Positions 1,494 to 43,820 of a stretch of 46,450 bases of DNA are shown piece by piece. The stretch is from contig WGAQ01000159.1 of assembly GCA_015494735.1 (NCBI GenBank), positions 1 to 46,450 on the forward strand. The letters run 5' to 3'. The notes under the pieces were generated by a model that saw nothing but the letters and a program-made list of their open reading frames with translations, ran no database searches and was not told the origin of the DNA. Made by a program: the position numbers and the translations under genes. Position 1 is the stretch's first letter, and every line of letters starts with the position of its first letter. This DNA comes from a candidate division WOR-3 bacterium (lineage in GTDB: Bacteria > Hydrothermota > Hydrothermia > LBFQ01 > DSFT01).

Positions 1494-1561
1494 AAGATAA
1501 CCATGCAAATGCCAGCGGGAAATCTTCCTCACGGCAATCAGACGAAGGTAAGGAGGTAAAC

Positions 1562-1579
1562 GGGAGGGAGGACCCTCCC
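1562..1579. terminator. Hairpin between convergent genes (possible bidirectional terminator)
   Basis: GGGAGGG (1562-1568), loop agga, CCCTCCC (1573-1579). It lies immediately after the TonB-receptor stop (1581-1583) and 69 nt after the ygjP-like stop. The U-tract is weak. Confidence 0.4.
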
Positions 1580-1580
1580 A

Positions 1581-3683: not shown

Positions 3684-3753
3684 CGTCTTCCTCCTTTTTC
3701 TGCGCCGGGGGAACCAGCGGGTGGAACAGAGAGGGTGAGGAGAGAAGAATCTC

Positions 3754-3856
3754 CCACACCTTCCCTGCGCCGGTATTACCCGGATCAGGTTCGAGGGGTC
3801 TCCCGCGCACTCCAGCGGGACTCTCAGCCGGGTTGCCCCCAGCTCCCCCGGTGTGG
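3754..3856 (-). promoter_or_regulatory. TPP (THI-box) riboswitch aptamer in the leader of the TonB-dependent receptor
   Basis: Minus-strand read: CCACACC-GGGGGAGCUGGGGGCAACCCGG-CUGAGAG-...-GAGACCCCUC-GAACCUGAUCCGGGUAAUACCGGCG-CAGGGAAG-GUGUGG. It contains the conserved CUGAGA, ACCUGAUC..GGUAAUACC..GCG and AGGGAA elements. A perfect 7-bp P1 joins 3850-3856 with 3754-3760. Downstream UCUUCUCUCC could pair with the GGAGGAAGA SD region. Confidence 0.85.
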
Positions 3857-3873
3857 CAATCAAATGCTTTACA

Positions 3874-10500: not shown

Positions 10501-11050
10501 GAACTCCATCGAATCTCAGCTCCCCTGCAGGTATGCCCAGAGATGTAAGGTCCGAGCCATACACCCTGTAAACCCCGGAAGTGGTTATATTCATGCGTAC
10601 CCAGTACCGGGCTCCGTTTATGAATCCCAGCTTCCCGGGGGCGACCCTCCGCCCCCTTATCCACTCCCGCGGGAAGGGATAGTTGATGAATCGCCTGTAT
10701 ATGGGCCTCCATCTGCCATCCCCTTTCCCTCCCCCGGATAGGGAAATCCTGACCCTCCACCTCACGGGCACCTTTCCACCCCTCAGAACGGGGTTGAAGG
10801 TGAGAACCACGTGGTCCACCTCTCCCCTCACCACCCTGTAATTCAGTGGACTGTCATGGCTGGAATACAGATTCAACCCGAGGGGAGCACTCTTCCACTC
10901 CAGAACGGTATAGTCCACCCTGACCTTCGCGCCGGGAGGAATGGCCACCAGATGGGTCGTGGGGGCATTGATGAGATTTTCGTACTCTATGACTATACCC
11001 CTGTCGCTATTCTCCAGAATGCTCACCGATGAGAAAAGGAGGAAAATCAT
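7574..11050 (-). CDS. C25 family cysteine peptidase with T9SS C-terminal domain (PorU-like sortase candidate)
   Basis: 1158 aa. Gingipain-type dyad VNVFAHGNPS (His codon 8882-8884) and FVMILSCKVS (Cys codon 8780-8782), 34 residues apart. FVGDATYDY...FYADFDGNGYADIYIGRIPV is C25-typical. CTD is YPVPFRGGDLYF...LLYDMSGNLV...GLYIAVL...KLVVVR. Confidence 0.8.
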   Translation of the reverse strand: MIFLLFSSVSILENSDRGIVIEYENLINAPTTHLVAIPPGAKVRVDYTVLEWKSAPLGLNLYSSHDSPLNYRVVRGEVDHVVLTFNPVLRGGKVPVRWRVRISLSGGGKGDGRWRPIYRRFINYPFPREWIRGRRVAPGKLGFINGARYWVRMNITTSGVYRVYGSDLTSLGIPAGELRFDGVLLLGLFDTLRSDIEWADSGAVEIAYGIHDADGDGMMDAEDYIFFYAEGPDGFRSSDSTIFYFIHPYSNFTSYWLGIGAPSPGIRMGTSSVSSSSPLPALGIYHHEIQRFNPGRKGTAWVGEEMTYGSHTFDFTLEGLTSPSGTLSVSIVGAEDLGDFTGYGTVDVFLNGNLVATVNTYNARKSTLTVPVSNLSPQGSITFRVNGTNQMVYLDYFEIRYSRSLPSSGKIFSSVTGTYHLGDAPLILRITDPAHPVILSSGADEVSPGDIYFKSDTFLSPSLHYVNIGRDIRNLGDVAYVIIGKEIFRGVFDSYREFRRSRMPVECDTIFCAGSGNVEYVSLEEIYDQFSLGVPDPVAIRNFLYSLYNSTPSLLYALFVGDATYDYRGYITTEGNLFPVYYDVKEVYDINITGVGSWDDFYADFDGNGYADIYIGRIPVRNSGETGRIISRVMDYETSRFFSFWRNRVMLVADDFVGSSPCEITWHLVPSDYIRRNLIPLEAEVWTLYMHEYPTVGGTKPQATSDFISKYNSGNLIVNVFAHGNPSTIAGERLITLDNVHLLNTAGHNPFVMILSCKVSVFDRISFAGPRGLGELMFIEDGGAIGLLGATALSYVTGNQIYANTIFSTLMDYRKYPMGFLALQGKTNKYYVLFGDPSVSIGYEPPDSVIWAPDTAYVGALYSAYLGGQGQYFSTIGFLPDTITVTNCSYTYTYMDEDKTFFRAPLYSDSLRAIIPKNTPVARKLKVRALYRGGVKGRDSISVAFDPARIAQDTIGPSIRMMIGGRDVRDSMSFSPVGTFRIVLSDENGIYLSPGERDIEVYVDGQLRWTLTQSFSYYENSYTEGEALLQYDLTREQGWHRLTIRAWDNYDNLSTRDYVLYFASNQLEVSDFLLYPVPFRGGDLYFTFVSTAPATGRVLLYDMSGNLVYSSPLFTVNAGFNSVVWEDARLGSGLYIAVLKLESSGIRKVYRKKLVVVR

Positions 11051-12441: not shown

Positions 12442-12463
12442 GCACTCCTGCTTCTCTTCACAA

Positions 12464-12475
12464 CTTTATAATTTT
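12464..12475 (+). promoter_or_regulatory. Promoter-like box upstream of nuoH (leaderless-type)
   Basis: CTTTATAATTTTcgaactATG. Confidence 0.45.
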
Positions 12476-27725: not shown

Positions 27726-30700
27726 ATGTTCGCTCTGCTGGTGATGGCTGTGGGAGGTGGTGTGCATATTCGATACGACGAAAGTATTCTCCGCTCCCTC
27801 CCCACCAATCCCTATCCCGGGGAGCCGGCTCTGCCGGTCGATATAAGGAGATTTACCCTCCCGGGGAATGCCGGGAATGTGAGGGTGGTGGTGGATGACA
27901 TTCGCATGGAGAGAATCGATATCGATTCCGTGGATTTCAACGATACCATAGTAATCGCAATGGAGAGAAGGGATTCCATAATCCCCCTCCCCGCAAAAGC
28001 CCACCTCTCTCCTGTGGTGCTGGAGGGGTACGGGAGGAAAAGGGATTCCACCATAGCAGTGGTGAGAATAAATCCCGTTTACTTCGACGGAAAGAGGGCA
28101 TACAGGATTCGAAGCATCTCCTTTCATCTGGAGTGGGAGGAATTGACCGATAACACGCAGAATCCACTGCCCGACAGTCTCGACTACCTGATACTGACAG
28201 TATCCTGGCTCCATCCATACGTGGATTCGATTGCATATCTCGCGAAGATAAGGGGATTCAGGACCCTGGTCATAGATGTGGACGATATAGCCACGAATCC
28301 AGGACGCATAAGGGACACGATAAAGTACTACTACAGGAACTTCGGCATCAGATACGCATCCATAGTGGCCCACGCCAGCATAGTACATCCATATCTCCTG
28401 AGATTCCACCCGGACAGCGTCCTCTACTGGTACTATCCAACGGGCCCGCTGGTGTACACGGACTTTCCCTATATGGCTCTGGATGGTGATTACTTCACGA
28501 GTCAGGACGAATTCATAGGGGATGGGGATGACAACACGGACATGGTGGCGGACATAGGATTCTCCAGAATACCCGTATCCACCCTGCCGGAGTTGAAGGA
28601 CTACTACACCAAATTCAAGTCCCATGTAATGGGAGAGAATAACACCACACCGGCATCTGTCACGTGTCTGGAGAGCCGCCTCGATGTGGACACCACATCC
28701 TTTTCATGGCTCTGCGAAACAGCCACGTACGGACTGGGAATTCCCCGGATACAGAGGATGTACGAGCCCTACTTCGACTATTTCCTGACACCGCAGGAGT
28801 TCTTCGATTCCCTCAACACCCTGAAGCCCCAGTTCTTCATTTACATCGGGCATTCCAACATAGACAGAATACTGACCACCTACTACCCCCGTCAGGATAT
28901 ATTCACCTCCACATACTACTCCCTCATGGAAAACTACGCCATACCCTTCTCCTACATAGGGGGATGCTGGCCCGGCGACCCCATGAGCGCTTCCATGGCG
29001 GTGAACCTCCCCAGGATAGACGGCAGGGGAAGTCTGTTTTCTATGGGGGCATCCAAACTCGATTACGCCACCAACGAAGCCATAAAGGCCAGGGGAATCC
29101 TCGAGGCCTTCTTCGTATTGAACAGGTCCTTTGCAGGGGATGTGATGAACTATGTCAGGGAGGACTACGTGGGGAGGAGGTACTTCCTTTACGAAATCAT
29201 GACCTATGGGGACCCCACCCTCACCATATACAAATCGAGCCCATCGCCTCCGCCGGCCGAAATCCTGCTTTCGAACAGCGAGGTGGGTGTGGTTGCTTAC
29301 GAGGACTCTCTGATGCTCTCCATAGTGGGAAGACATCTGTACGAAAGGCACATCCTGAATGAAGGGGGCAATTCCATACCCCTGCACGTGAATGCACCGG
29401 AAACTTTGACGGTGTCCATATGGAAACCCGGATACACTCCCATGCTCAGGAAAGTGTTCGTGCTTCCCGATGGGGTGGTCTTCGGGGAGCCCACCATGGG
29501 TGGTATAGCCCTTCCCGGAGACACCATCGCCATTCTGCTCGTCGCGCACAATTACACGGATGAAACCCTTCCCTATTCCCTGCATCTGGAAACCGAGAAT
29601 GCCTATCTGCTGCAGGATAATCTGAGCGGCACCCTTCCACCCCGCTCCGCGGACACCCTGACGGTGAGCCTCATTCCATCCAATGCGGAAACCTTCACCC
29701 TGAGGTTGATTCACGATGGAAGGGTGCAGAGTTACAGGTTTCCCATAGCCGCCCTCTCCCCCCACATAGCAGGTGTGAGGTGGCTCGACGACAGTGCAGA
29801 AGTGGACATATACAATCCCTCCTCCAGGCCCATGAGCCTAAACCTGACGACAGAATTCGAGAGGAAAGTACTGGAAGTGCCCCCTTCGGGAACGGGAAGC
29901 ATAATGCTCTATGCTCCGGATTCATCCCTCACCCTGAGGCTCGAACTTCCGGAGTTCCAGACGAAGGTTACCCTGGTAAGGGCAGAGGGCCCCAATCCTC
30001 CCAAATCCGTAAGGGCATACAGCATACCATCGGGGATACAACTTTACATGGTGAACCTGCCCCCGTCGGCCCATGCGTTCCGAATATACAGGAAGAGGCA
30101 GGGGGACATAAGGGGATATGTGCATGCGGGCATCACCTCTCCGGGTTCCATGGTATTCGTGGATTACCCGGGGGATTATGGAAATTACTGCTACAGGGTC
30201 TCGGCGCTGGACCAGTATATGAACGAAGGGGAGCTGTCGGATGAGGTGTGTGCCAGTCCCGGACCCGATTACGGATTCATGAAACCCATATCGTACGCAG
30301 AGCAAATATATTCTCAACCCGTCGTGGGGCAGTTCGACAGGACCACCCCCTCTTTCGAACTCTTCCTGGTGGGCAATGTGCACATGTCCTTCTACGACTC
30401 CCACGGGTCCCCATACGATGGTTATCCCATAACGACCATGCTGGAGGTGCGGACCAAGCCCGTGGTGGCGGACTACGATGGGGATGGATTCGAGGAGGTA
30501 ATCCTCTCCGGAAAGAGCACGACGGATAACCGCTCCTATATACTGGCGGTGGAACTGGATGGAAGAGTGGATACCCTGTTCACATCGGAGCACCCCTACG
30601 ACTTCGCCCTCTCAGGAGGCCTGCTGGCCGCAGACATGACGGGGGATGGCACTCCGGAAATCGTGTTCAAGAACTACTACGGCAACGACCCCTATGCCCC

Positions 30701-31817
30701 GAGGTTCATCTTCCTCAGCGGGGATTCCCTCATGTTCCAGTTCCGGCTCAACGGCGATGCATTCAACTACATAATCCCCGCCGCCGCCGACATCGACTCC
30801 GACGGAAAATTCGAACTCGTGTTTCTGGATGAGGACAAGCAATTGTACGCTCTCAACGGAGACAGTTCCTTCGTGGATGGTTATCCGGTGGACCTCTCGG
30901 GGGACATACCCGGAACCATAAACTATACGGAGGTTCTGGGAATCGATTCCCTGATAATAGCCATAAGCAGGACATCCGAGGGAGACATATACCTCAGCAA
31001 AATCCAGGTGGATGGAACCCCCATCGGGACCATTCAGGTGGCATCGGGGGCTGTTCACTATTACTGGCAGCACTCCGCTCTCGGGTATATCGATGGGGAC
31101 CGGATACCAGACCTGGCCATCCCCACGAGGGACAGCCTGATTCTGGTGAACGTGGAAGGGGAGCGAATAGCACCATCCCTGTACCAGTACCTGCTGGGCC
31201 CATACACTATGTCCTCCCCGATACTGGCGGACGCCGGACTGGATGGGAAGATCGACATCGTCTTCTCCAATGCATCCATGATACAGGTTTACGAATACGA
31301 TGGTGGACAGTTGAGGGAGTACGCTGGATTTCCCCTGATAATGGCCGATGACTCCACCATGGACAGCGAAGGTTTATTCCCTCCATTCGTGGAGGATGTG
31401 GATGGAAACGGATTCGGGGAGTTATACGTTGCGATGAACAGGCTGGGATACGTGTACCAGATAGAATCGCCTTCATTCCGCGTACTGCCGTGGTCTCAGG
31501 AGTTCTCCAACAGATGGAACACCAGCTGGTACGGATTCGAGCCCCCATCGGTGCCGGTATCGGACGGCGAAGACATCCGTATAAAGCAGCCGGACATCTC
31601 GGTGCATCCGGGATACATAATGCTGCAGGGGCAGGCCGGGATGCCCTACAGTGTGGACATATACAGCATTTCCGGCAGGAGGGTCATGGGTGTCTCCGGG
31701 CAGATACCTGCATCCGGAAGAAGGAGGGTGGACATCGCCCTTCCCGATGGAATTTACGTGGTCAGAGGAAGGGTGGGTGCGCTGTCCATCACCCGGAAGG
31801 TGGTGAACGTAAGATGA
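27726..31817 (+). CDS. Multidomain C25 peptidase / FN3-like / FG-GAP(VCBS) beta-propeller protein with T9SS C-terminal domain
   Basis: 1363 aa. C25 core LDYLILTV...MALDGDYF...ADIGFSRIPV. Dyad FIYIGHSN (His codon 28851-28853) and YIGGCWPG (Cys codon 28965-28967). FN3-like YRIYRKRQ...YCYRVSALDQYMNEGELSDEV. At least six D-x-D/T-G-D-G repeats (ADYDGDGFEE, ADMTGDGTPE, ADIDSDGKFE, YIDGDRIPD, DAGLDGKID, EDVDGNGFGE). CTD is YSVDIYSISGRRV...DGIYVVRG...KVVNVR. Confidence 0.8.
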   Translation: MFALLVMAVGGGVHIRYDESILRSLPTNPYPGEPALPVDIRRFTLPGNAGNVRVVVDDIRMERIDIDSVDFNDTIVIAMERRDSIIPLPAKAHLSPVVLEGYGRKRDSTIAVVRINPVYFDGKRAYRIRSISFHLEWEELTDNTQNPLPDSLDYLILTVSWLHPYVDSIAYLAKIRGFRTLVIDVDDIATNPGRIRDTIKYYYRNFGIRYASIVAHASIVHPYLLRFHPDSVLYWYYPTGPLVYTDFPYMALDGDYFTSQDEFIGDGDDNTDMVADIGFSRIPVSTLPELKDYYTKFKSHVMGENNTTPASVTCLESRLDVDTTSFSWLCETATYGLGIPRIQRMYEPYFDYFLTPQEFFDSLNTLKPQFFIYIGHSNIDRILTTYYPRQDIFTSTYYSLMENYAIPFSYIGGCWPGDPMSASMAVNLPRIDGRGSLFSMGASKLDYATNEAIKARGILEAFFVLNRSFAGDVMNYVREDYVGRRYFLYEIMTYGDPTLTIYKSSPSPPPAEILLSNSEVGVVAYEDSLMLSIVGRHLYERHILNEGGNSIPLHVNAPETLTVSIWKPGYTPMLRKVFVLPDGVVFGEPTMGGIALPGDTIAILLVAHNYTDETLPYSLHLETENAYLLQDNLSGTLPPRSADTLTVSLIPSNAETFTLRLIHDGRVQSYRFPIAALSPHIAGVRWLDDSAEVDIYNPSSRPMSLNLTTEFERKVLEVPPSGTGSIMLYAPDSSLTLRLELPEFQTKVTLVRAEGPNPPKSVRAYSIPSGIQLYMVNLPPSAHAFRIYRKRQGDIRGYVHAGITSPGSMVFVDYPGDYGNYCYRVSALDQYMNEGELSDEVCASPGPDYGFMKPISYAEQIYSQPVVGQFDRTTPSFELFLVGNVHMSFYDSHGSPYDGYPITTMLEVRTKPVVADYDGDGFEEVILSGKSTTDNRSYILAVELDGRVDTLFTSEHPYDFALSGGLLAADMTGDGTPEIVFKNYYGNDPYAPRFIFLSGDSLMFQFRLNGDAFNYIIPAAADIDSDGKFELVFLDEDKQLYALNGDSSFVDGYPVDLSGDIPGTINYTEVLGIDSLIIAISRTSEGDIYLSKIQVDGTPIGTIQVASGAVHYYWQHSALGYIDGDRIPDLAIPTRDSLILVNVEGERIAPSLYQYLLGPYTMSSPILADAGLDGKIDIVFSNASMIQVYEYDGGQLREYAGFPLIMADDSTMDSEGLFPPFVEDVDGNGFGELYVAMNRLGYVYQIESPSFRVLPWSQEFSNRWNTSWYGFEPPSVPVSDGEDIRIKQPDISVHPGYIMLQGQAGMPYSVDIYSISGRRVMGVSGQIPASGRRRVDIALPDGIYVVRGRVGALSITRKVVNVR

Positions 31818-34039: not shown

Positions 34040-34920
34040 ATATTTTGACGGCCTTCTTCGCAGGGGTGATTTCCTTCCTCTCCCCCTGCGTCTTTCCACT
34101 GATACCTTCGTATATTGCATACGTAGGTGGTGTTTCGGTACTCTCCGGCGAGAGAAGGGGCGTATCCCTCAGCACCATAATCAACCTCCTCCTCTTCATA
34201 CTGGGCTTCTCCCTGGTATTCATAGCATTCGGAGCCGGAGCCACCTTCATCGGACAGTTCATGGCGAAGAACAAGATGCTCCTGGCGAAGGTGGCGGGAA
34301 CGGTCATAGTCCTGTTCGGACTGAGTTTCATGGGCGTCTTCAACAAACGCATGAAAAGGGAATATCCCCTGCGGGTCAAAGTCCTCGGATGGCTCTCCCT
34401 CGTGGCATTCGCAGTGGCCCTGTACATATTCTTCTTCTCCCGGTACGATTCCCTCATCATGGGCCTCATATACCTGACACTGGTCTCCGCTTTCGCCTAC
34501 CTGCTGAACTACCTGTCCATCATCACTTTCGAATTCCTGAATTACGAGGCCAAATTCCAGTATCAGGCCAAGAAGTCCACCTACATGACCTCCTTCATCC
34601 TGGGTCTGTCATTCGCTTTCGGATGGACCCCATGCATCGGTCCCATACTGGCCGCCATCATTGCCATGGCTGCGGTCCAGGAGACGGTGATGCAGGGTAT
34701 CATCCTCCTGGCATTCTACTCTCTGGGTCTCGGACTCCCCTTCTTCATATCCGGGATACTGGTGGACCTGCTCCTCAAGAGCCTGAAGGCCATCCGGAAG
34801 TACTTCCGCCTCATAGAAATCATCGCGGGGGTCATGCTCATCGTCATAGGAGTTCTCATATACACGGACCTCCTGCAGCAACTGGCATACCTCCTTCCGG
34901 ACCTGGGGCTGGAGTACTGA
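34027..34920 (+). CDS. ccdA: Cytochrome c biogenesis / thiol-disulfide transporter CcdA (DsbD family)
   Basis: [21 protein letters not shown] and [11 protein letters not shown], the two conserved Cys motifs. Overlaps the pckA end by 13 nt. Confidence 0.85.
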
Positions 34921-36254
34921 TGTTCCAGGAAATCATTCTCCCCTTTGCCACGGTGCTCTCGGCTTTCGGAGGAAACTTCGAGATATTCATCGGAACAGAA
35001 GGAGCAGTGGCCATATACAGCACATCGATGGACAGGGTGGAGTGGTCCCATCCGGTCAGCGGAAGGGTGGAGCATGTCGTGTACTCCAATGGAAGCATTT
35101 ACTTTTACAGCAACGGGAAGCTCTATTCCATATCGAGGGGTTCCGGTCCCCTCGACCCGCCCCTGTCCCTGCGGGACGTTTCCCCTCCCCTGCGAATGGG
35201 CGTTTCCTCAGATGGCCTCGTGGTTCTGGACTATGGCTCCCGGAAGATGTACATAGACCCGGCCGGATTCGAGAAGGACAGGCACTCCGGGGAAATAGAG
35301 TGGGGAGGCTCGTACAGGGATGGGAGCATATACCGGTACCCCCAGATAGAGAACCTTTACCTGTATCGACCATCCATAGGAAAGGTGAAGCCCCTATTCC
35401 TCCTGCCATACAGGGATAGGTGGCTGGTGGGGACGGATGGACTGGGTCTCCTGGTGTTCAACTCCGGCAGTTTATTTCCCTTCGATACAGTCCTGGCTGG
35501 CACCTTCAACGGCAGGTACAACACCTTACGATTTATGGACGGAAAGCTCTTCATCGGAGGGGACAGGGGAATAGATATATACGAATCGGGGAGATTCAAT
35601 TCCATGGCCCTTTCCGGATGCAACGGTCAGGTGGACGAGATATTTCCCATGGGAGGAGAGTACTATGCGGCCGCATGCGGCAGGATATACAGGTTCACCC
35701 CGGATGGCAGGAGTGTGGACCTGACGGGAAATATCGGCTACGAGCGCATAATTCCTCTCAGGGGAAGGGTCTTCATCCTCTACAGGGGAGAATTGTACGA
35801 ATTCACCGGCAGAAGAATAACACGCATCATGAACAGGTGGGTTTACGACGTGGCTTACTGGAGGGGCAGATTCTACGCCATAACGGACAGGGGCATCATC
35901 TCCCTGAAGGACTCATCCACCATAGAACTGGACAGGAAGAGCTGGATAGACAGGAATATAAGGGCATACTCCGACGGCGATACGATTGCGATATGCAGCC
36001 GATTCGGCATAATGCTGTTCGATGGGAAATGGACATTCTTCGAGCAGGGTATGGGTAACATTTACCAGTGCGAGAAGGTGAAGGGGAAGATATTCTCCAT
36101 ATCGTCTTCCGGAGTGTGGACCCTGGACCCGAAGGATGGAAGATGGGACAGGATTCTCCCGAGGCTGGAGAATGTGCGGAGGATGGCATACGGAAACGGC
36201 ATCTACTACTTCATGACTCCAGAAGCCATCTTCGGAGGAATGGATTTCCGATAA
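34920..36254 (+). CDS. Hypothetical beta-propeller-like repeat protein
   Basis: ATG 34920 overlaps the ccdA stop (TGATG). Repetitive G-x-hydrophobic-Y/F strands (GSIYFYSNGKLYSI, GRIYRFTPDG, GELYEFTG, GRFYAITDRGII, GKIFSISSSGVWTL). Hydrophobic N-terminus. The track ORF start at 34389 is out-of-frame overlap with ccdA. Confidence 0.5.
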   Translation: MFQEIILPFATVLSAFGGNFEIFIGTEGAVAIYSTSMDRVEWSHPVSGRVEHVVYSNGSIYFYSNGKLYSISRGSGPLDPPLSLRDVSPPLRMGVSSDGLVVLDYGSRKMYIDPAGFEKDRHSGEIEWGGSYRDGSIYRYPQIENLYLYRPSIGKVKPLFLLPYRDRWLVGTDGLGLLVFNSGSLFPFDTVLAGTFNGRYNTLRFMDGKLFIGGDRGIDIYESGRFNSMALSGCNGQVDEIFPMGGEYYAAACGRIYRFTPDGRSVDLTGNIGYERIIPLRGRVFILYRGELYEFTGRRITRIMNRWVYDVAYWRGRFYAITDRGIISLKDSSTIELDRKSWIDRNIRAYSDGDTIAICSRFGIMLFDGKWTFFEQGMGNIYQCEKVKGKIFSISSSGVWTLDPKDGRWDRILPRLENVRRMAYGNGIYYFMTPEAIFGGMDFR

Positions 36255-36619: not shown

Positions 36620-37834
36620 TCAGAGGAAGAAGTACAATCCGATTGCAGCAAGGATTATCAGAAGGAGCACAACGAACAGTCCCACGAGCAACTTCTTCCA
36701 CCCTCCGCTCGATGCCTCCACCTCCTCGAATTCGAATTCGGCCTCTTCCTCCTCTTCATCTATGGGTATGAACTGGGTAATCTTCATTCCGGCCACCTCT
36801 TCCTCCGACACCACACCGCCCCTCGTCGCATATCCACCTTCGGGAACCTCTATCTCCTCCACCCTGTAGCTGTCGTCCTTAACTATACCGGTGTCCAGAA
36901 TGGCCTTTATGAATTCCGCCGCACTCTGATACCTCTCCGATGGAACCTTGTCTATGGCCTTCATCACTATCCTGTCCACCTCCGGAGGCACTTCCGGATT
37001 CAGGCGGGATGGGGGAGGCGCCTCTCCGGAGAAAACCTTTCTCTGCAGGACCCAGATACTCTCGTTCTTCTCCTGCTTCTGGTCCCTGGACTTCTTCTTT
37101 ATGTATGCCAGGTCCTTCTCATCGAGATAGTATGGTGTCTTACCTGTGAGCATCTCGTAAAGGATGACTCCGACGGAGTATATATCGCTCCTGTGGTCCC
37201 ACCTTCCCTTGAACTGCTCCGGAGCCATGTACTCGGGGGTTCCTGGAATCCTCTTCTCCCTCCTGGCGGAGCCCATAACTATATCGGCGATGCCGAAATC
37301 CAGCAGATAAACCCTCCCATCCGTCGAGAGCATCACGTTGCTGGGCTTGATGTCCCTGTGTATGATGCGCTTTTTGTGAGCATAATCCAGGGCCTTCAGA
37401 ATCTCCACCGTAATCCTGAGGGCTTCCTGTACGGGCAGCTTCCCCCTCTCCCTGATGTAGGTGTCGAGGGTTATGCCATTCACATAGTACATCACGATGT
37501 AGAATCGGCCCTTGTGCTCTCCGAAATCGTAAACCTTGACGATGTTGGGATGGTCCAGTTCCTGAGCCACCATCTGGGCCTCTTTGTAGAACATGGTCCG
37601 GGCCTCTTCATCCAGAGTCATGTCTCCCTTGAGAATCTTGAGAGCCACCTTCCTCCTGAGGGTTATCTGCTCTGCTTCGTAAACGTCCGCCATCCCCCCC
37701 GATGCTATCTTCTTCCTTATCCTGTACTTGCCCCCTACGATTTCCCCGATGTTTATCTCCGGAAGTTTTACTTCCTTCTTCTCACCCTTTTTCACTTCCT
37801 TCCTGACCGCGTCCTTCTCCTTCTCTTTCATCAT
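36620..37834 (-). CDS. Hanks-type Ser/Thr protein kinase, C-terminally tail-anchored
   Basis: VALKIL (Lys), HRDIKPSNVML, DFGIAD, GTPEYMAPE. Acidic stretch DEEEEEAEFEFEE, then a terminal TM WKKLLVGLFVVLLLIILAAIGLYFFL. ATGA overlap with the PP2C gene. Confidence 0.9.
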   Translation of the reverse strand: MMKEKEKDAVRKEVKKGEKKEVKLPEINIGEIVGGKYRIRKKIASGGMADVYEAEQITLRRKVALKILKGDMTLDEEARTMFYKEAQMVAQELDHPNIVKVYDFGEHKGRFYIVMYYVNGITLDTYIRERGKLPVQEALRITVEILKALDYAHKKRIIHRDIKPSNVMLSTDGRVYLLDFGIADIVMGSARREKRIPGTPEYMAPEQFKGRWDHRSDIYSVGVILYEMLTGKTPYYLDEKDLAYIKKKSRDQKQEKNESIWVLQRKVFSGEAPPPSRLNPEVPPEVDRIVMKAIDKVPSERYQSAAEFIKAILDTGIVKDDSYRVEEIEVPEGGYATRGGVVSEEEVAGMKITQFIPIDEEEEEAEFEFEEVEASSGGWKKLLVGLFVVLLLIILAAIGLYFFL

Positions 37835-38613
37835 AAAACCTCCAGAAGAGCCTTCACCCTGTCTATAAGACCGGCTTCGCTCTTCAAAATTTCCACCACC
37901 ACCACGGTTATGTTATCCTCTCCACCCCTGCTGTTGGCCAGTTCTATTATCAGGTCCACAGCATCCTTTGGACTGTACTTCCTGAGGATTTCCTTCAATT
38001 CGTCGTTCGTGAAGTATATGTAGGCCCCATCGCTCGCCAGGAGGAACTTGTCTCCATCCACCACGAGCCCGGTATATAGTTTGGGAATCACAATTTCCTT
38101 GTACCCCAGGGCCTTGGTCAGAACGTGCTTGGACGGATGGGTCTCCGCATCCTCCGGGGACAGGGCACCCCTCTTGACCAAAGCCATGGCCTGGGTGTCG
38201 TCTTCCGTAATCTGTCTGAAGAATCTCCCGTACCTGAGCAGGTAAGCCCTGGTATCTCCCACGTGGACTATGTAGTACCGCTTCCCATAGATGAAGAGGG
38301 CCGTAAAGGTGGTCATGGCCCCGTAGTATTCCTCGCTCGTGCTGACCCTGTAGGTGCTCTTGCTGGCTTCTATAAACGCCTTCTGGAGGAGTTCCACCGG
38401 GTCCCTGATCTTGCCGTAGTACTCCTTCACAGTCTCCACGAAGGTCTGGGTGGCCTCATAACTGGCCTTATCCCCGGACATTCGACCCCCCAGCCCGTCC
38501 GCCACCACGAACAGACCTATGCTGGGGTCTATGGCGAAGAAATCCTCGTTCTTTGGACGCTTGCGCCCTATATCCGTATTGCCGAATGCCCTTCCCCGTC
38601 CCTTCGTCTTCAC
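37831..38613 (-). CDS. PP2C family Ser/Thr phosphatase
   Basis: GNTDIGRKRPKNEDFF, VADGLGG, LLASDGAY, GGEDNITVVVVE. GTG start. Confidence 0.9.
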   Translation of the reverse strand: MKTKGRGRAFGNTDIGRKRPKNEDFFAIDPSIGLFVVADGLGGRMSGDKASYEATQTFVETVKEYYGKIRDPVELLQKAFIEASKSTYRVSTSEEYYGAMTTFTALFIYGKRYYIVHVGDTRAYLLRYGRFFRQITEDDTQAMALVKRGALSPEDAETHPSKHVLTKALGYKEIVIPKLYTGLVVDGDKFLLASDGAYIYFTNDELKEILRKYSPKDAVDLIIELANSRGGEDNITVVVVEILKSEAGLIDRVKALLEVL

Positions 38614-38627
38614 CTATGACCTTCCCT

Positions 38628-39014
38628 TCAGGAAGCGAACCAGCCCTTCATCGCCTCCTCGAAGAGGGATGCATAGCGGGAGAGGATGGCTGTAACTATT
38701 CCGAGAGTGGCTTTCTCTCTGGAAACTATCAGATGCAGGTAGAATTCCCCGTTGCTGACGGGCTTGGTCAGCACTATGTGGTTCTCGCTTATCCCAATGA
38801 GGGTCGAAAGGGATGCAGAGGACAGAGCCTCCAGAGCCCGCATCTGGTACCTGGTGGCCTCCATGCTGTACGCAGCCGAAACCTGCAGGTCTATATCCTC
38901 AGCAGACTTGGTCTCCACTACCGTCAATCCCTCCTTACCCTCCACGATGGCTCCCCCGAGAAATCCGGGCACCTCATCCTTCAGATTTTCCAGGAGTTCC
39001 TTCAGTTTCTCCAT
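38628..39014 (-). CDS. Roadblock/LC7 domain protein (second MglB/MglC-like paralogue)
   Basis: 128 aa. VPGFLGGAIVEGKEGLTVVETKS...HIVLTKPVSNGEFYLHLIVSREKATLGIV follows the Roadblock pattern. Its start overlaps the RR stop (TAATG), with AAGGAGGT SD. Confidence 0.7.
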   Translation of the reverse strand: MEKLKELLENLKDEVPGFLGGAIVEGKEGLTVVETKSAEDIDLQVSAAYSMEATRYQMRALEALSSASLSTLIGISENHIVLTKPVSNGEFYLHLIVSREKATLGIVTAILSRYASLFEEAMKGWFAS

Positions 39015-40153
39015 TATTCCACCTCCTTGGATAGTAATTCAAAGATTCTCTTCAAAACCCTCGAATACTCGACTCGGGCGAGTGAGATAGAAACATTAAC
39101 GAGGGCCATAAGGACAAGGAAACCTCCCTTAAACTCCACGTAAAGCAATCTATTATCCTCCAGTTCTATATATCCAGACACTATCTTCCCCACGGAAAGC
39201 AGCCCGTTGACCAGGGGATAGTAAAGCCCCAGACCATAGAGGAGATTGGCATCTGCATCGTATATCTCCAGAACCTCCATCCTGTCGTCGGAGGCCAGTA
39301 TCTCCCCTATTATGTCCGCTATGGGCTCCGGAAGGGGTTTTACCCGGGGGCCTTCCGCCTTCTCTGCTACGAATTTTCCTATGGATTCCCCCTCCGAATC
39401 GGTTTCCTCCTCTTCCTGAATTATGCCCTCGAATATGGAGCCAGTGAATTCGTACGATTCTTCTCCTCCCCCTTCCATGCTCAAACCGGAGGATTCCTCG
39501 TCTATCTGGGCGAAAATCTCGAGCATCAGATTACTGAAGGGGATATCTATGGTCTTCTTGGGTGGCTTCACCCCCTTTTCCACCGAGAACGTACCTCCCT
39601 CGAGGGAGAATATGACCTTCAGTGCATCGAGCCCCTCTATATCACCGAATCGGGCATGCACTATCTCCCCATCCTGCATGTATATCCTTCCAATTCCGGC
39701 AGCGGAGGAAATGTTTATCACCGCATTGGCCTTTTCCACATTGAGTATGTTCAGCATGTCCGTGATGCTCAGCTCCTTCACCACCCCCCTGAATCCACCC
39801 TTCTCGAGTTTGCGCAGGAGCTGAAGCAGATAATCTATGTCGAAGGGTTTCTCTATGTATTCGACCGCCCCCTTCTCTATGGCGAGCCTCTCCAGTTCAT
39901 CCGAACCCCTGGCGGTCATCACTATGACCCGTATATCCTTATTCCTCTTCTTCGCCTCCTCTATGAGGTCCAGACCCGAAAGCTCGTCCATCTTGATGTC
40001 CGTTATCAATATATCGGCAGGCTCCGTTGAAAGGACTTCTATTGCCCTCCTGGGACTGGTCTCGGTAATCACATCGTAGCCATGTCTCTTGAGGTATCTC
40101 GAAAGCCCCAGGAGGATGTCCTCCTCATCGTCCACTATAAGAACCCTCTTCAT
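39014..40153 (-). CDS. Response regulator: REC + DUF4388/PATAN-like + C-terminal Roadblock-like region
   Basis: REC: VLIVDDEEDI, ILITDIKMDE, VIVMTA, YIEKPF. Middle: FRGVVKELSITDMLNILNVEKANAVINISSAAGIGRIYMQDGEIVHARFGDIEGLDALKVIFSLEGGTFSV, the DUF4388 pattern. C-terminus: MEVLEIYDADANLLYGL...YIELEDNRLLYVEFKGGFLVLMALVNVSISLARV. Confidence 0.85.
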   Translation of the reverse strand: MKRVLIVDDEEDILLGLSRYLKRHGYDVITETSPRRAIEVLSTEPADILITDIKMDELSGLDLIEEAKKRNKDIRVIVMTARGSDELERLAIEKGAVEYIEKPFDIDYLLQLLRKLEKGGFRGVVKELSITDMLNILNVEKANAVINISSAAGIGRIYMQDGEIVHARFGDIEGLDALKVIFSLEGGTFSVEKGVKPPKKTIDIPFSNLMLEIFAQIDEESSGLSMEGGGEESYEFTGSIFEGIIQEEEETDSEGESIGKFVAEKAEGPRVKPLPEPIADIIGEILASDDRMEVLEIYDADANLLYGLGLYYPLVNGLLSVGKIVSGYIELEDNRLLYVEFKGGFLVLMALVNVSISLARVEYSRVLKRIFELLSKEVE

Positions 40154-41454
40154 TCGTAAGGCCTCCCTTTGAAATAGAGAGTGAAGGTCGTGCCTTTGCC
40201 GGGCTCACTATCCACCTCCACTATGCCCTCGTTATCCTTTACAAGTTTATGGACAACGTAGAGTCCCAGACCGGTTCCCTCCTCCTTGGTGGTGTAAAAT
40301 GGGTAAAAAATCTTATCCTGCCTGTCCTTAGGGATTCCCACTCCGAAGTCCCTGACCTTTATATAGGCGTATTTCTTCGTTGCATCTGCGAATACGCTGG
40401 ACATTCCCGTTTCGATTTGAATTTTACACCCATCTATCCCCCTGCATGCATCTATGGCATTGAGGACCAAATTAATCAGTATCTGCTGGAGGTCCTTCGG
40501 GTCCACAAAGACCTCCACGTCCTCCTTCTCCACGTACTCTATCTCCACCCCCTCCCTGCTGGCCTGCGCCTCCAGTATATTGATGACCTCCTCTATGACC
40601 CCCTTTGCCCGGATATACCGGGGCCTGGAGGTGGAAGGCTTACTGTAAAACAGAAGCTTGGAAATCAAATCGTTGACCCTGTCCACCTGCTTCGAAATTC
40701 TCTGCGCCATTATGCGCTTTTCACCCTCCAGGTCCTGCGCCAGGGTCTGGGCCAGTATCTTGACGCTCGTAAGGGGGTTCTTTATCTCATGGGCGAGGGC
40801 CGCCGCCATTATGCCCACGGAAGTAAGCCTGTCCACCAGGGACATCAAATCCTGCATGCGCTTCTCGTTGGTTATATCCCGGAAGAGCACTATGTAGCCC
40901 TCCACGTTGCGGGAAAAGGGCTTCAAATGAACCAGAAAGTACCTATCCCCCACCTGAACCTCTATGGGCTCCCTGTAACCCCTCGTTTCGTCTGCCTTCG
41001 AGAGGGCCTCCTTTATGAGTTTCTCCACCCCCTCCACTTCCTGAGCATACCTGTTCCTGTAGATTATGGAGCCACCCCTCGAATCGTACAGGACCACTCC
41101 ATAATCTATGGAATTGATGATTTCCTCAGCAAGACCGCTTTTCCTCTCCGGCTTCAGGGAAACATAGAACCCCTTCTCCACGGGTATGACCCTCATGTAG
41201 TAGGTCCTGGACTCCCCATCCGGAGTCCTTATGGGCACCCTCAGGCTCAGGGGCTGCAGACTCCTCCTGCTGTTCTCCAGAAGGCTCCTGACCACCCGCG
41301 CATACCCCGATGGAAAGATGGACAGGAAGTCCTCCTCCTTCCCCAGATGCATCTGCGCCTTCGTATTCCTGTCCACTATGCGAAACTGATTGTCCACTTC
41401 CAGAAGCAGATCGCTGCTCAGGTCCAGAAGCCTCCCTATCGAAACGACGCTCAT
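40150..41454 (-). CDS. Cytoplasmic PAS-domain sensor histidine kinase
   Basis: H-box ALAHEIKNPLTSV, N-box LINLVLNAIDA, G1 VRDFGVGI, G2 GTGLGLYVVHKLV. No TM segments. ATGA overlaps at both ends. Confidence 0.9.
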   Translation of the reverse strand: MSVVSIGRLLDLSSDLLLEVDNQFRIVDRNTKAQMHLGKEEDFLSIFPSGYARVVRSLLENSRRSLQPLSLRVPIRTPDGESRTYYMRVIPVEKGFYVSLKPERKSGLAEEIINSIDYGVVLYDSRGGSIIYRNRYAQEVEGVEKLIKEALSKADETRGYREPIEVQVGDRYFLVHLKPFSRNVEGYIVLFRDITNEKRMQDLMSLVDRLTSVGIMAAALAHEIKNPLTSVKILAQTLAQDLEGEKRIMAQRISKQVDRVNDLISKLLFYSKPSTSRPRYIRAKGVIEEVINILEAQASREGVEIEYVEKEDVEVFVDPKDLQQILINLVLNAIDACRGIDGCKIQIETGMSSVFADATKKYAYIKVRDFGVGIPKDRQDKIFYPFYTTKEEGTGLGLYVVHKLVKDNEGIVEVDSEPGKGTTFTLYFKGRPYE

Positions 41455-42044
41455 CCCACCTGTGCCTTCTTCACTATCTTGGTCATAACCTGTTTAACAA
41501 CTCCATCGAGGGTCTGGAAGACTCCCTTACCCTCCTTGGCGATGGCTTCGAAGTACGGAACATCCCAGTGGTTGAGGTCTGACTGGAGGGTGGGGATATC
41601 CAGAACGCTGGGCAAATCCCTCTTGTTGTACTGAATGACGAAAGCCAGGGTCTCGATAGGGGTCTTGAACTCCTTCAGGGTCTCCACCATCTCGTTCATA
41701 ATCTTGATGTTGGCCTCCCTCCTGTCCACGGCAGAATCCGCCACGAATACCACACCGTCCGTTCCCTTCAGCACCAGTTTTCGGGATACGCGATAGAATT
41801 CCTGGCCCGGAACCGTGTACAGGTGGAATTTGACCCTGAATCCACTCGGTGTCTTGACCTCCACGGGAAGGAAATCGAAGTACATGGTTCTCTCGCCCTT
41901 GGTGTCCACCGTGACCATCTCGCCCCTGAATTGAGGATTCAACTTCCTGTAGATGTACTTCAGATTCGTGGTCTTTCCACTCAGAGCCGGGCCGTAATAT
42001 ACGATTTTAACATGTATCTCCTTCTTCCTGTGGTCTATCAGCAT
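41451..42044 (-). CDS. mglA: MglA-type Ras-like small GTPase
   Basis: KIVYYGPALSGKTTNL, ERTMYFDFLP, FHLYTVPGQEFY (the MglA-specific PGQ switch II), GTDGVVFVADS, QYNKRDLP. Close to my recollection of Myxococcus MglA. Confidence 0.9.
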   Translation of the reverse strand: MLIDHRKKEIHVKIVYYGPALSGKTTNLKYIYRKLNPQFRGEMVTVDTKGERTMYFDFLPVEVKTPSGFRVKFHLYTVPGQEFYRVSRKLVLKGTDGVVFVADSAVDRREANIKIMNEMVETLKEFKTPIETLAFVIQYNKRDLPSVLDIPTLQSDLNHWDVPYFEAIAKEGKGVFQTLDGVVKQVMTKIVKKAQVG

Positions 42045-42064
42045 GGATTCGACCCCCTCTCTGC

Positions 42065-42532
42065 TTATTCCTCATCGAGCAAATCGGTGAAGGACAGTCC
42101 CTCCAGGAAAGAGGTATCTCCACCGAACAATTCCTGCACGTCGGAGTCGGAAGCGGATGCAGCCTGCTCCAGTTCCTCGATGTTCTTCTTTATGAGTCTC
42201 GCAGCCTTCCTCACCTCCACCAGCAGAAGACCCAGAGAGGCATCGGTGGTTATGGAGAGAGCCAGCAGGTAATCCTTGGATATCCTGTACAGGAGGAGCA
42301 TCCTCTCCTTCCCCTTCACGTACACCTCGGAAAGGGAGCCCCCCTTCAGTTCGGAGAGAACCGTGTCTCCCAGCCCCACCAGGGCTGCCGATATGGCCCC
42401 GAAGTTCTCCTCGTTTATTTCCCCTCCCAGTTCCGAGGCCATCACGATTCCCTCCATATTGGCCACAGCGGCCGCCCTTATCTGAGGGACCTTCTTTATC
42501 AGGTCCTGCAGTATCGCTTCTATCTTTTCCAT
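42065..42532 (-). CDS. mglB: Roadblock/LC7 protein MglB (GTPase-activating partner) with acidic C-terminal extension
   Basis: VPQIRAAAVANMEGIVMASE...EVYVKGKERMLLLYRISKDYLLALSITTDASLGLL, immediately upstream of mglA. Tail is DSDVQELFGGDTSFLEGLSFTDLLDEE. Confidence 0.8.
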   Translation of the reverse strand: MEKIEAILQDLIKKVPQIRAAAVANMEGIVMASELGGEINEENFGAISAALVGLGDTVLSELKGGSLSEVYVKGKERMLLLYRISKDYLLALSITTDASLGLLLVEVRKAARLIKKNIEELEQAASASDSDVQELFGGDTSFLEGLSFTDLLDEE

Positions 42533-42555
42533 AATAACCCCCTTACTTGCTTAAC

Positions 42556-43779
42556 TCAGAAGAATATCCCCGCAATAGAGCCCATGTGGGCGCCGGGATA
42601 GAGATTTTCTGCAATTACCACCTCTTCCACCGTCTCCACCAGGAGATAGGGAGCCTTGAGGTTATCGCCAATCCTCCTCTGCTCCTCCACGTAATCCTCG
42701 AGGGAAAGGACCCTCCTCCTGACGAAACTCTCGAACATGAGGGCCCCGTTTATCTTGTCCAGACGTCCCATGGCTCTGCCCATCATCTTATCCACCGCCT
42801 CGTGCATCTCCTCCGTACTGGATTCCATGAGCCATATGGAGTCCCCCTCGCTCAGGAATGCATTGAGCCTGATTCCCCTCTCCGATATATTCATGGGAAG
42901 GACAGCCCTGAAGATGCCCGGCTTGTTCTTATCTGCCACAGCGAACTGGAACCTGTTCAGTATGCGGCTGGCCTTCACGGGGTCCCTTATATCCTCCTCG
43001 CTGTATCCCTTTCTGGAAAGCACATCGAGCAGGATGTAGAATGCGGGGTCGTCATCCAGGGATATAATCATGTCGCCCCTTATACCCGTAATCTTGAAGG
43101 GTCTAACGGGATGAAATCCGTGGGCCTGGTCCACGTAAAATCTTACATCGGACTCCAGTTTGATGAATATGGCATGGTCCGTATAGGTCTTTCCGTTTAA
43201 CAGGAACGTCTGGTACTCCATCTTCTCAGGGTCCCCCACGATTCCCCCGATTATACCATCGAAACTGTCCGCAAATTCCACCAGGGCATTGTAGGTATTC
43301 TCCCCGGCGAGCGGAATGGAATTGGGGGCGAAGAACACAAGGTAATTATATTCCCTGTTGCTCGAACTTTCAATAAGTTTACCAACTGCTTCATGTATCG
43401 CCCTCTTGGAGCCGAGGGAGAACCCCTTCGCTATCTCCACGCGGGCTCTCACCTTCCTGGAGAATATTCCTACGGCAACCCCGCTCTCGGAGCCAGCCGA
43501 ATGGGCCGCCGCGAAGTTGTTCACGAGGATTGCCACCGGAACATCTCCCACCACGCTCCTTATACCGTCGTACACCTTCCGATAATCGTAGTCGGGGGTA
43601 ACGATTCCTATAGCGAGAGAGTACTCGTTGTCCTGAAGAAGAGAGGCAGCCTCCCTTGCAGCATCGACACCGGCACCGAAATTCTTCTCGGAGTTGGAGA
43701 ATCCGGCTCCGAAATACATGAACGTACCAGCCATCAACTGTTTTTTCGAAAAATCTACCCTGTCCTTAAACTTATCCAT
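42556..43779 (-). CDS. FIST (N+C) domain signal-sensor protein
   Basis: 407 aa. GAGFSNSEKNFGAGVDAAREAA...VPVAILVNNFAAAHS...GFHPVRPFKITGIRGDMIISLDDDPAFYILLDVL...FAVADKNKPGIFRAVLPMNISERGIRLNAFLSEGDSIWLM follows the FIST_N/FIST_C layout. Confidence 0.7.
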   Translation of the reverse strand: MDKFKDRVDFSKKQLMAGTFMYFGAGFSNSEKNFGAGVDAAREAASLLQDNEYSLAIGIVTPDYDYRKVYDGIRSVVGDVPVAILVNNFAAAHSAGSESGVAVGIFSRKVRARVEIAKGFSLGSKRAIHEAVGKLIESSSNREYNYLVFFAPNSIPLAGENTYNALVEFADSFDGIIGGIVGDPEKMEYQTFLLNGKTYTDHAIFIKLESDVRFYVDQAHGFHPVRPFKITGIRGDMIISLDDDPAFYILLDVLSRKGYSEEDIRDPVKASRILNRFQFAVADKNKPGIFRAVLPMNISERGIRLNAFLSEGDSIWLMESSTEEMHEAVDKMMGRAMGRLDKINGALMFESFVRRRVLSLEDYVEEQRRIGDNLKAPYLLVETVEEVVIAENLYPGAHMGSIAGIFF

Positions 43780-43789
43780 AACGGCTTCA

Positions 43790-43800
43790 CAATTATAAAG
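43790..43800 (-). promoter_or_regulatory. Promoter-like box upstream of the FIST-mglBA signalling operon
   Basis: Minus strand CTTTATAATTGtgaagccgttATG, in a 41-nt divergent intergenic region shared with cca. Confidence 0.45.
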
Positions 43801-43820
43801 GATTGAGGAGGGGCAAGGTC

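Follow-up and report, generated by a model that had tools for sequence, protein, structure and literature searches.

The polarity module of Myxococcus xanthus consists of the small GTPase MglA together with MglB, MglC, RomR/RomX and RomY and receives input from the Frz response regulators; how these regulators, once phosphorylated, act on the MglA/MglB/MglC/RomR module has been described as unknown (PMC10329633). More generally, the neighbourhoods of Group 1 mglA genes 'vary widely', with an occasional PATAN gene, and some Group 1 MglAs have two coupled MglB homologues (PMC4316618). That mglBA pairs lie near PATAN genes was already known (Makarova et al. 2006, as cited in PMC4316618). Here, we analysed a stretch of 46,450 nucleotides (nt) from a candidate division WOR-3 bacterium (contig WGAQ01000159.1 of assembly GCA_015494735.1; hereafter, the window), in which eight minus-strand open reading frames (ORFs) at 36620-43779 form a cassette around an mglA gene. 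The cassette is a real, conserved feature, and its mechanism is what we infer below. The eight genes probably make up one transcription unit whose products would form a cytoplasmic signalling module with a Group 1 MglA at its centre, an elaboration of the MglA/MglB polarity switch that would be specific to WOR-3/Hydrothermia. The genes, the domains of the response regulator (RR) and the upstream promoter-type box are as follows, with protein lengths in amino acids (aa) and Pfam scores in bits.

43791-43801, minus strand: conserved -10-type promoter box cCTTTATAATT (CTTTATAATT box), 12 nt upstream of the FIST ATG, with TATAAT at 43792-43797
42556-43779, minus strand: FIST sensor protein, 407 aa, cytoplasmic, with FIST_N at residues 55-243 and FIST_C at residues 274-374
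42065-42532, minus strand: Robl1, MglB-like Roadblock protein, 155 aa, Pfam Robl_LC7 (PF03259) 47 bits
41451-42044, minus strand: MglA, Group 1 small GTPase, 197 aa, Pfam Arf/Ras
40150-41454, minus strand: soluble histidine kinase (HK), NtrB/AtoS-like, 434 aa, PAS-HisKA-HATPase_c by Pfam
39014-40153, minus strand: RR, 379 aa, with the three domains that follow
39815-40144, minus strand: receiver (REC) domain of RR, residues 4-113, Pfam Response_reg (PF00072) 88.7 bits
39494-39787, minus strand: PATAN (DUF4388) domain of RR, residues 123-220, Pfam PF14332 54.7 bits
39023-39328, minus strand: C-terminal Roadblock-fold domain of RR, residues 276-377, assigned by structure prediction and profile comparison
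38628-39014, minus strand: ORF6, stand-alone Roadblock-fold protein, 128 aa, assigned by structure prediction, with an invariant E28-G29-L30-T31 loop
37831-38613, minus strand: PP2C-type Ser/Thr phosphatase (PP2C), Stp1-like, 260 aa, GTG start codon, Pfam PP2C_2 48.5 bits
36620-37834, minus strand: Hanks-type Ser/Thr kinase (STK), 404 aa, Pfam Pkinase 179 bits

The ORF list and a base-level inspection of the sequence reproduced all eight genes of the initial annotation, at exactly the coordinates it had given, and every junction it had described. FIST and Robl1 are separated by 23 nt (+23), Robl1 and MglA by 20 nt (+20), and ORF6 and PP2C by 14 nt (+14). The other genes overlap: ATGA overlaps (-4 nt) join MglA to HK (41451-41454), HK to RR (40150-40153) and PP2C to STK (37831-37834), and a TAATG overlap (-1 nt) joins RR to ORF6 (39012-39016). 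Seven of the eight starts are preceded by a purine run of the GGAGG/GGGGG type that resembles a Shine-Dalgarno sequence, the exception being FIST. Long plus-strand ORFs in the same region (e.g. 40249-41634) are shadows of the purine-rich coding strand (regional GC skew of -0.13 to -0.17).

The promoter-type box lies so close to the FIST start codon that the leader would be very short and would contain no Shine-Dalgarno sequence. In the relatives L092, L094, L008, L106, L107 and L098, gCTTTATAATT is found 10-15 nt before the FIST start, and L007 has a variant before FIST, TTGACA-17-TATACT, with TTGACA at 17-nt spacing. The box is kept although the genes upstream of FIST are unrelated, the upstream gene being co-directional in L007 and L008. 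Two copies of it occur in the window, each shortly before a gene start, where 0.33 would be expected by chance; the other copy, at 12463-12473 on the plus strand, lies 9 nt before the start of a nuoH-like gene at 12482. The box thus appears to be the ordinary, general -10 element of this organism, giving rise to very short or near-leaderless transcripts. A generic promoter and terminator scan yielded only chance-level match counts and no above-chance signal inside the operon, and it did not call the FIST box because a good -35 element is missing. The conserved box supports a transcription unit that would start at FIST, and the gene overlaps suggest read-through as far as the kinase gene. The tight coupling and the single upstream promoter box of the first reading both stand. 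At the other end, the stop codons of STK (36620) and of a convergent FeS-assembly gene (36616) leave the two genes only 3 nt apart, with no room for an intergenic terminator hairpin.

A neighbourhood check bore out the recurrence of the gene order in relatives. The exact RR sequence was found only on contigs of the same species, and the same order, with unrelated flanks, accompanies RR homologues at 56%, 47% and down to about 38% identity. The order is shared by L007, L008, L009, L010, L092, L094, L106 and L107, again with unrelated flanks; cassette-bearing loci span 27-58% GC, and the named relatives belong to candidate division WOR-3 and 'Candidatus Hydrothermia' (now phylum Caldifarciminota). 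A metagenome search anchored on ORF6 added 36 loci. Among loci with enough flanking sequence, the full eight-gene cassette is present in five, and another five run from FIST through PP2C with no kinase gene. Three loci contain a gene for an FHA-TPR protein between ORF6 and PP2C together with a second kinase gene, one has the same insertion and second kinase with no FIST, and seven consist of ORF6-PP2C-STK alone. When contigs were scanned with the RR alignment, the patterns used fell in the REC domain and the matches listed were mainly generic REC proteins, with no cassette in L012-L091.

These counts qualify the initial view of an eight-gene unit. The order is conserved, whereas the unit itself is divisible: FIST is optional, the kinase is absent from one clade, the FHA-TPR and second kinase genes have been inserted in another, and the last three genes occur on their own. 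ORF6 is followed by PP2C, or by the FHA gene and then PP2C, in every locus that reaches far enough downstream. The RR/ORF6 junction is 0-3 nt everywhere, and every RR orthologue of the clade that was checked sits in a cassette. The stand-alone ORF6-PP2C-STK triads lie after lptC-lptB and before a methyltransferase gene, with no MglA, HK or RR gene nearby. Because the triad occurs without a nearby MglA, the stand-alone Roadblock is tied most tightly to the phosphatase/kinase pair rather than to MglA, and ORF6 is likely to be functionally linked to that pair. Triad loci L114-L124 (e.g. L115 7783-11959) read lptC-lptB-Roadblock-PP2C-STK-methyltransferase and belong to genomes of about 42% GC. The genomes with triad-only loci are not those with cassettes; that an STK-less cassette might draw on a stand-alone triad of its own genome was rejected, because the two locus types differ in GC content (about 28% versus about 42%) and in tetranucleotide profile. 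Upstream of the FHA-variant cassette of L009, positions 221-3674 encode a CheC/CheX-like protein, a 780-aa TPR protein and a PATAN-TPR protein, the second PATAN protein at that locus.

Group 1 MglAs have been defined as single-domain GTPases of <240 aa with a G1 P-loop, a G4 NKxD motif, an Arg finger beside the G2 Thr, TVPGQ and an MglB homologue within four genes (PMC4316618). The MglA of the cassette agrees in each of these respects: it contains the P-loop GPALSGKT, R52-T53, TVPGQ at residue 77 and NKRD, and it has the size and the coupling to an MglB homologue expected of the group. It aligns with the M. xanthus and Thermus thermophilus MglA structures at E values of about 1e-59, and over 190 ungapped positions its identity to the M. 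xanthus protein is 48.4%. R52-T53 falls on the RT of the M. xanthus protein in this ungapped alignment and is conserved in the cassette orthologues. On its sequence, the protein is therefore a Group 1 MglA with a predicted intrinsic arginine finger. Two further Roadblock modules are encoded close by, the RR domain two genes and ORF6 three genes downstream of mglA.

Robl1 had been labelled MglB. The operational definition of MglB in the same survey is a protein of 129-179 aa that has a single Robl_LC7 domain and whose gene is no more than four genes from mglA (PMC4316618), and Robl1, with 155 aa and one Robl_LC7 domain, is encoded at the canonical position immediately upstream of mglA. According to Baranwal 2019 (PMC6785124), a D/E-rich C-terminal extension of MglB longer than 15 residues co-evolves with Lys/Arg in alpha5 of MglA. 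Robl1 ends in a 34-residue tail with 10 acidic and no basic residues that is strongly conserved across orthologues, and the last 20 residues of MglA hold four Lys, making alpha5 Lys-rich, so that the two proteins follow this co-evolution pattern. The size, domain, position and acidic tail thus fit the label, but the sequence is nearer to generic and archaeal Roadblocks than to crystallised MglB. As a single sequence, Robl1 matched 7f8m in PDB at 2e-14, with MglB marginal; as a family profile, it matched the Thorarchaeota Roadblock 7f8m at E 1e-18 and the MglB entries 6h5b/6izw/6hjm only at E 0.15-0.25. CvnB5 was among its weak PDB matches. Robl1 is also 26% identical (E 6e-7) to the Roadblock in the mglB position of L128, a Hydrothermales metagenome-assembled genome (MAG). 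Since its family profile barely reaches crystallised MglB but readily matches archaeal Roadblocks, we term Robl1 MglB-like. It is probably a GTPase-activating protein (GAP); MglA and Robl1 would then constitute a GTPase/GAP pair.

HK has HisKA and HATPase_c domains and marginal PAS_4/PAS_8 matches just over the Pfam cut-off. It has intact HEIKNP, N, G1, F and G2 boxes and contains no transmembrane segment, HAMP domain or C-terminal LPxR. Its best partial NCBIfam matches are AtoS and ZraS, placing it near AtoS/ZraS/NtrB, and the best NCBIfam matches of the RR receiver are of the NtrC/AtoC type, which is what a cognate pair would show. The receiver contains D8/D9, D52, T80 and K102, and the phospho-acceptor residues (D52/T80/K102) are invariant in 18 orthologues. 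RR has no transmembrane segment. Residues 221-275, which link its PATAN and Roadblock domains, are acidic in character (14 acidic and four basic residues). The C-terminal domain received no Pfam call, but structure prediction and profile comparison agreed on the Roadblock fold that had been proposed for it. Residues 268-379 were modelled by AF2 with a pLDDT of 92.5, and all 50 PDB matches listed by Foldseek for this model were of the Roadblock/LC7 type (MglB, LAMTOR/MP1-p14 and dynein light chains; TM-scores of about 0.5-0.7). The family profile of the domain aligned with that of Robl1 (hhalign 97.6%, E 3.6e-12). In the alignment, the central helix is about 13 residues shorter in the clade of the window, and an explicit PF03259 domain is present in many of the RR homologues that are more distant. 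The REC-PATAN-Roadblock fusion is itself abundant in databases, with about a thousand homologues. HK and RR thus most likely form a cognate pair, with an RR output that would consist of protein-protein interaction through PATAN and Roadblock.

ORF6 had no match in sequence searches of Pfam, NCBIfam and PDB. A word-based homologue search found only five near-identical proteins, and an exhaustive profile search found 68 remote relatives; among 40 of these that were examined, 10 have the ORF6-like module directly after a PATAN domain and three have weak Robl_LC7 matches. The AF2 model of ORF6 (pLDDT 95.3) shows the topology alpha-beta-beta-alpha-beta-beta-beta-alpha. Its top Foldseek match was T. 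thermophilus MglB (1j3w, TM-score 0.84), followed by MglC, Asgard Roadblocks, M. xanthus MglB and LAMTOR subunits; against MglC 7ct3, the E value was 3e-8 and the TM-score 0.64-0.68. At the profile level, the broad-family alignment of ORF6 matched the Robl1 family (hhalign 94.8%, E 4.9e-8), whereas the narrow orthologue alignment reached only 42-53% against the other two Roadblock families. Model, structure search and profile comparison together support a Roadblock fold for ORF6, and with it the three Roadblock modules first counted in the cassette. Among 33 distinct orthologues, the E28-G29-L30-T31 loop is conserved to at least 95%. The second-best match of the ORF6 profile, P0127 (E 4.4e-20), is a protein of 2242 aa with eight DUF5801 repeats and eight partial stretches corresponding to profile positions 20-90; as a DUF5801 repeat protein with short partial matches only, it was set aside as irrelevant to ORF6.

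PP2C scored 195.9 bits with the NCBIfam Stp1/IreP model (NF033484), below its cut-off of 230, and its metal-binding motifs are present (RPKNED, DGLGG and SDG, with ...EDNIT read by eye). STK scored 329 bits with the Stk1/PknB model (NF033483), below its cut-off of 450, and contains VALK, HRDIKPSN, DFG and APE. Its kinase domain is followed by a very acidic juxtamembrane stretch and then by a single C-terminal transmembrane anchor (residues 376-404, nt 36623-36709); since the protein ends at this helix, it has neither PASTA nor any other extracellular domain. The FIST protein, which has no transmembrane segment, exceeded the cut-off with both of its domains (Pfam FIST 50.2 bits against a gathering score of 23.2; FIST_C 32.2 bits against 28.5). 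Overall, the profile searches placed FIST/FIST_C, Robl_LC7, the GTPase, HisKA/HATPase_c, REC-PATAN, PP2C and Pkinase above the Pfam gathering scores, in agreement with the domains initially assigned, and the catalytic motifs, checked in each of MglA, HK, REC, PP2C and STK, are intact. Nothing that the initial annotation had named as refuting it was encountered.

On this basis, the module may work as follows. MglA would cycle between GTP and GDP, with a Robl1 dimer as its MglB-type GAP, the acidic tail of Robl1 docking, as in M. xanthus, on the Lys-rich alpha5 of MglA. The soluble PAS kinase, perhaps with input from FIST, would phosphorylate RR at D52. RR has no DNA-binding output and would act through its PATAN and Roadblock domains; its phosphorylation may alter their binding and thereby couple His-Asp signalling directly to a GTPase-regulator fold. 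ORF6 would supply a second Roadblock dimer, either as a homodimer or as a heterodimer with the single Roadblock domain of RR, and may compete for MglA or Robl1 or serve them as an adaptor, much as MglC does between RomR and MglB. The membrane-anchored Hanks kinase and PP2C would reversibly phosphorylate this Roadblock layer, for which the invariant T31 of ORF6 is a candidate site. The insertion of the FHA-TPR gene between ORF6 and PP2C in four loci points to phosphothreonine-dependent interactions, since FHA-TPR proteins would read phosphothreonine. What the module ultimately sets would be where MglA-GTP is located or how active it is, with type IV pili or cell polarity as the most likely target. 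That the state of the GTPase is set by two phosphorylation systems, as the initial annotation proposed, is a reasonable inference from synteny.

A bolder and more tentative version, possible although we would not expect it to hold, is that the ORF6-type Roadblock, PP2C and the tail-anchored Hanks kinase constitute an autonomous 'phospho-Roadblock' module, in which the partners of a Roadblock dimer are switched by its Ser/Thr phosphorylation, with T31 as the candidate site, and that this module was fused in WOR-3/Hydrothermia to mglBA and an RR with a Roadblock output. If this were true, His-Asp and Ser/Thr phosphorylation of its Roadblock regulators would both act as direct gates on the cycle of a bacterial small GTPase. 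Such a system would be a prokaryotic counterpart of regulated Ragulator/LAMTOR-type platforms and would provide a molecular answer to how phosphorelay signals reach MglA.

Type IV pili would be our best, if tentative, guess for the output, because in Synechocystis the PATAN domain binds PilB1 and PilC of the pilus motor, pili have been seen on the only cultured WOR-3 isolate, and an mglBA pair is linked to pilus motor genes in this lineage. In the locus that shows this linkage, L128 6506-13591 from a 'Candidatus Hydrothermales' MAG, a plain Roadblock-mglA pair precedes cinA and genes for two PilB-like (MshEN+T2SSE) ATPases and one PilT-like ATPase, and a prepilin peptidase gene lies upstream; it is a direct linkage of mglBA with pilus motor genes. 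Plain Roadblock-mglA pairs are also found in another WOR-3 MAG and in an Edwardsbacteria MAG. In addition, an orphan mglA lies between pntB and the gene for a MacB/FtsX-type permease at L098 12229-12813 (minus strand) and L129 7001-7585. The L098 copy is about 2 kb downstream of an STK-less cassette; its product does not match the TVPGQ pattern, and its G3 motif may deviate. Cassette-type MglAs cluster at an identity of at least 59%, below which generic Group 1 MglAs are found. No second MglA or Roadblock was found outside the cassette in the window. The 'single MglA' of the first description is correct for the locus; it does not extend to the relatives, which carry further MglA paralogues, including the pair beside pilB/pilT-like genes. 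The cassette MglA may thus be one of several paralogues. We looked for the plain mglBA-pilBT locus and the cassette in one assembly; the assemblies differed, with similar composition.

Several observations weigh against the proposed switch or parts of it. Because relatives hold other MglAs, one of them beside pilus ATPases, the cassette MglA may control something other than pili. No pilus, gliding or type IX secretion system (T9SS) genes adjoin the cassette in the window, and motility was not observed in the cultured WOR-3 strain. A T9SS link, which had been raised as a possible output, is unsupported, the adjacent genes being housekeeping genes. Robl1, as described above, shows at most marginal sequence similarity to crystallised MglB. 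Given the kinase-less clade and the FIST-less cassettes, control of the GTPase by two phosphorylation systems cannot be obligatory, and other genomes carry the triad without MglA, so that the GTPase is not necessarily its target. The RR/ORF6 heterodimer and the phosphorylation of T31 are conjectures.

The modularity of the cassette also leads to a different reading, which we regard as rather unlikely, namely that two or three independent systems merely happen to be neighbours: an mglBA pair of the plain kind, an orphan HK/REC-PATAN-Roadblock pair, and a Roadblock-PP2C-kinase triad with a role unrelated to MglA (e.g. in envelope biogenesis or growth, like Stk1/Stp1), all brought into one operon by the compaction of a thermophile genome. 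The seven loci in which the triad stands alone downstream of lptC-lptB, the plain Roadblock-mglA pairs of the lineage, and the REC-PATAN-Roadblock proteins that occur without MglA in Desulfobulbaceae are what such independence would look like. The dispensability of FIST and the kinase in some cassettes and the proximity of the kinase and phosphatase to the Stk1/Stp1 families fit it as well. However, it is hard to explain without functional coupling why the order Robl1-MglA-HK-RR-ORF6-PP2C and its tight junctions are kept at 27-58% GC among unrelated flanks. The confinement of the checked RR orthologues of the clade to cassettes and the near-constant RR/ORF6 junction also speak against it, as does the fact that the only outputs of RR are PATAN and a GTPase-regulator fold. 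We therefore prefer the MglA-centred switch.

Two further readings are weaker. An improbable one is a conservon-like switch in transcription or development, rather than in polarity or motility, in which the GTPase and Roadblock modulate HK as in CvnA-D of Streptomyces; it would account for the presence of HK, Roadblock and an MglA-family GTPase in one operon and for CvnB5 among the weak matches of Robl1, and conservon interactions are known to depend on kinase and GTPase activity (PMC4316618). The details are nonetheless those of another system: the GTPase is of Group 1 (RT, TVPGQ) and not of Group 2 (GTPGQ, no Arg finger), the kinase is soluble and lacks the HAMP domain and C-terminal LPxR, no CvnC/DUF742 protein is encoded, and a cognate response regulator is present where conservons have none. 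The other, an anti-phage defence island of the PD-T4-6 or MADS type centred on the Ser/Thr kinase, has next to no probability. It arises from scores of the kinase of up to 291 bits on the PADLOC PD-T4-6 models and 249 bits on mad6, together with a partial MAD6 match in NCBIfam, but the PADLOC models respond to any Hanks kinase domain, and PknB/Stk1 gives a higher score (329 bits). Defence matches are absent from five of the eight proteins and, besides the kinase, only weak single-domain matches of the RR receiver (21.7 bits) and PP2C (40 bits) were found. The core of the cassette is an MglA/Roadblock/two-component system, and its flanks are housekeeping genes that differ among relatives and show no mobile-element signature. 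We rejected the defence reading.

The remaining genes of the window have housekeeping and envelope roles; their products include a TonB receptor, BamA, subunits of the V/A-ATPase and of complex I, C25 peptidases and PEPCK. A TPP riboswitch (RF00059, 75.5 bits; gathering score, 54.3) was identified at 3744-3859 on the minus strand, directly 5' of the TonB-dependent receptor gene, which suggests thiamine-regulated outer-membrane uptake; because the mechanically called ORF at 1581-3863 overlaps the aptamer, its real start must lie further downstream. Two very large Peptidase_C25 (gingipain-like) proteins are encoded at 7574-11050 (minus strand, 1158 aa) and 27726-31817 (plus strand, 1363 aa), the latter with faint FG-GAP matches and followed by a DUF4159 gene. 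Between the DsbD_TM and FeS-assembly genes, 34920-36254 on the plus strand encodes a protein of about 444 aa that has no Pfam match and is conserved in same-species contigs; the mechanically called ORF here (34389-36254) overextends into the DsbD gene.

All of the parts of the cassette are known families, and both the association of MglA/MglB with PATAN and the REC-PATAN-Roadblock fusion are already known or visible in databases. In the literature searched, which spans only part of the journals, we found no description of the full cassette wiring or of the Roadblock-PP2C-kinase triad, consistent with the earlier statement that this exact architecture was not known to have been characterised. 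A receiver fused to a Roadblock fold, whose predicted operon also encodes its kinase along with a Group 1 MglA, an MglB-like protein and another Roadblock, makes it directly testable whether phosphorylation controls a Roadblock platform that in turn controls MglA. The lineage is largely uncultured, which is a limitation. The cassette provides a compact system of small, probably thermostable proteins for studying how phosphorylation reaches MglA. The recurrent Roadblock-PP2C-Hanks kinase triad further suggests that bacterial Roadblocks may be targets of Ser/Thr phosphorylation or regulators of kinases.

The Myxococcus MglA/MglB/MglC/RomR module and the conservons, to which the locus had been likened from the start, are apt as analogies. 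Like the M. xanthus module, the cassette comprises a Group 1 MglA with an intrinsic Arg finger, a Roadblock that is encoded next to mglA on its upstream side and ends in an acidic tail, another Roadblock that stands alone, a protein with a REC domain and an acidic region, and a link to phosphorylation signalling. It differs in that all of its genes lie in one operon, in that its REC protein has the arrangement REC-PATAN-Roadblock (RomR consists of REC, a Pro-rich region and a Glu-rich tail), and in that its Robl1 is at most marginally similar in sequence to the MglB of M. xanthus. No RomX or RomY was identified in the cassette, which adds a dedicated HK, a PP2C/Hanks kinase pair and FIST. The counterpart of ORF6 would be MglC, which has a conserved F25-D26-x-I28 surface patch and takes part in a RomR/MglC/MglB complex in M. 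xanthus (PMC10329633). ORF6 contains no FDxI motif and has no sequence-level PDB match to MglC 7ct3; because this motif is absent, it is not an MglC orthologue. A precedent for a Hanks-type kinase genetically linked to mglA also comes from M. xanthus, in which masK, a kinase gene, belongs to an operon next to mgl (PMC3546991).

With the mglBA-PATAN pairs, the cassette shares a Group 1 MglA, MglB-family Roadblocks and a nearby PATAN protein; unlike them, it has a fixed order of six to ten genes, three Roadblock modules, HK, PP2C, the kinase and FIST. RR resembles the cyanobacterial PatA-type regulators (PixG, PixE and PatA) in combining REC with PATAN as the output and in having no DNA-binding domain. 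The hallmark of that type is an N-terminal PATAN and a C-terminal REC; RR is not PatA-type because this order is reversed, and it has, in addition, a C-terminal Roadblock and a PAS-HisKA kinase as its partner instead of a CheA-type chemosensory system. Actinobacterial conservons (CvnA-D, Mfp) likewise place HK, a Roadblock and an MglA-family GTPase in one operon, but their Group 2 GTPase, membrane HAMP kinase with an LPxR tail, CvnC/DUF742 protein and lack of a response regulator have no equivalent in the cassette, which is thus not a conservon. Finally, the adjacent, overlapping phosphatase and kinase genes and the anchoring of the kinase by one transmembrane helix recall Stk1/Stp1 (PknB/PstP-type) pairs, from which the cassette proteins differ in scoring below the NCBIfam equivalog cut-offs and in being always preceded by a Roadblock gene.

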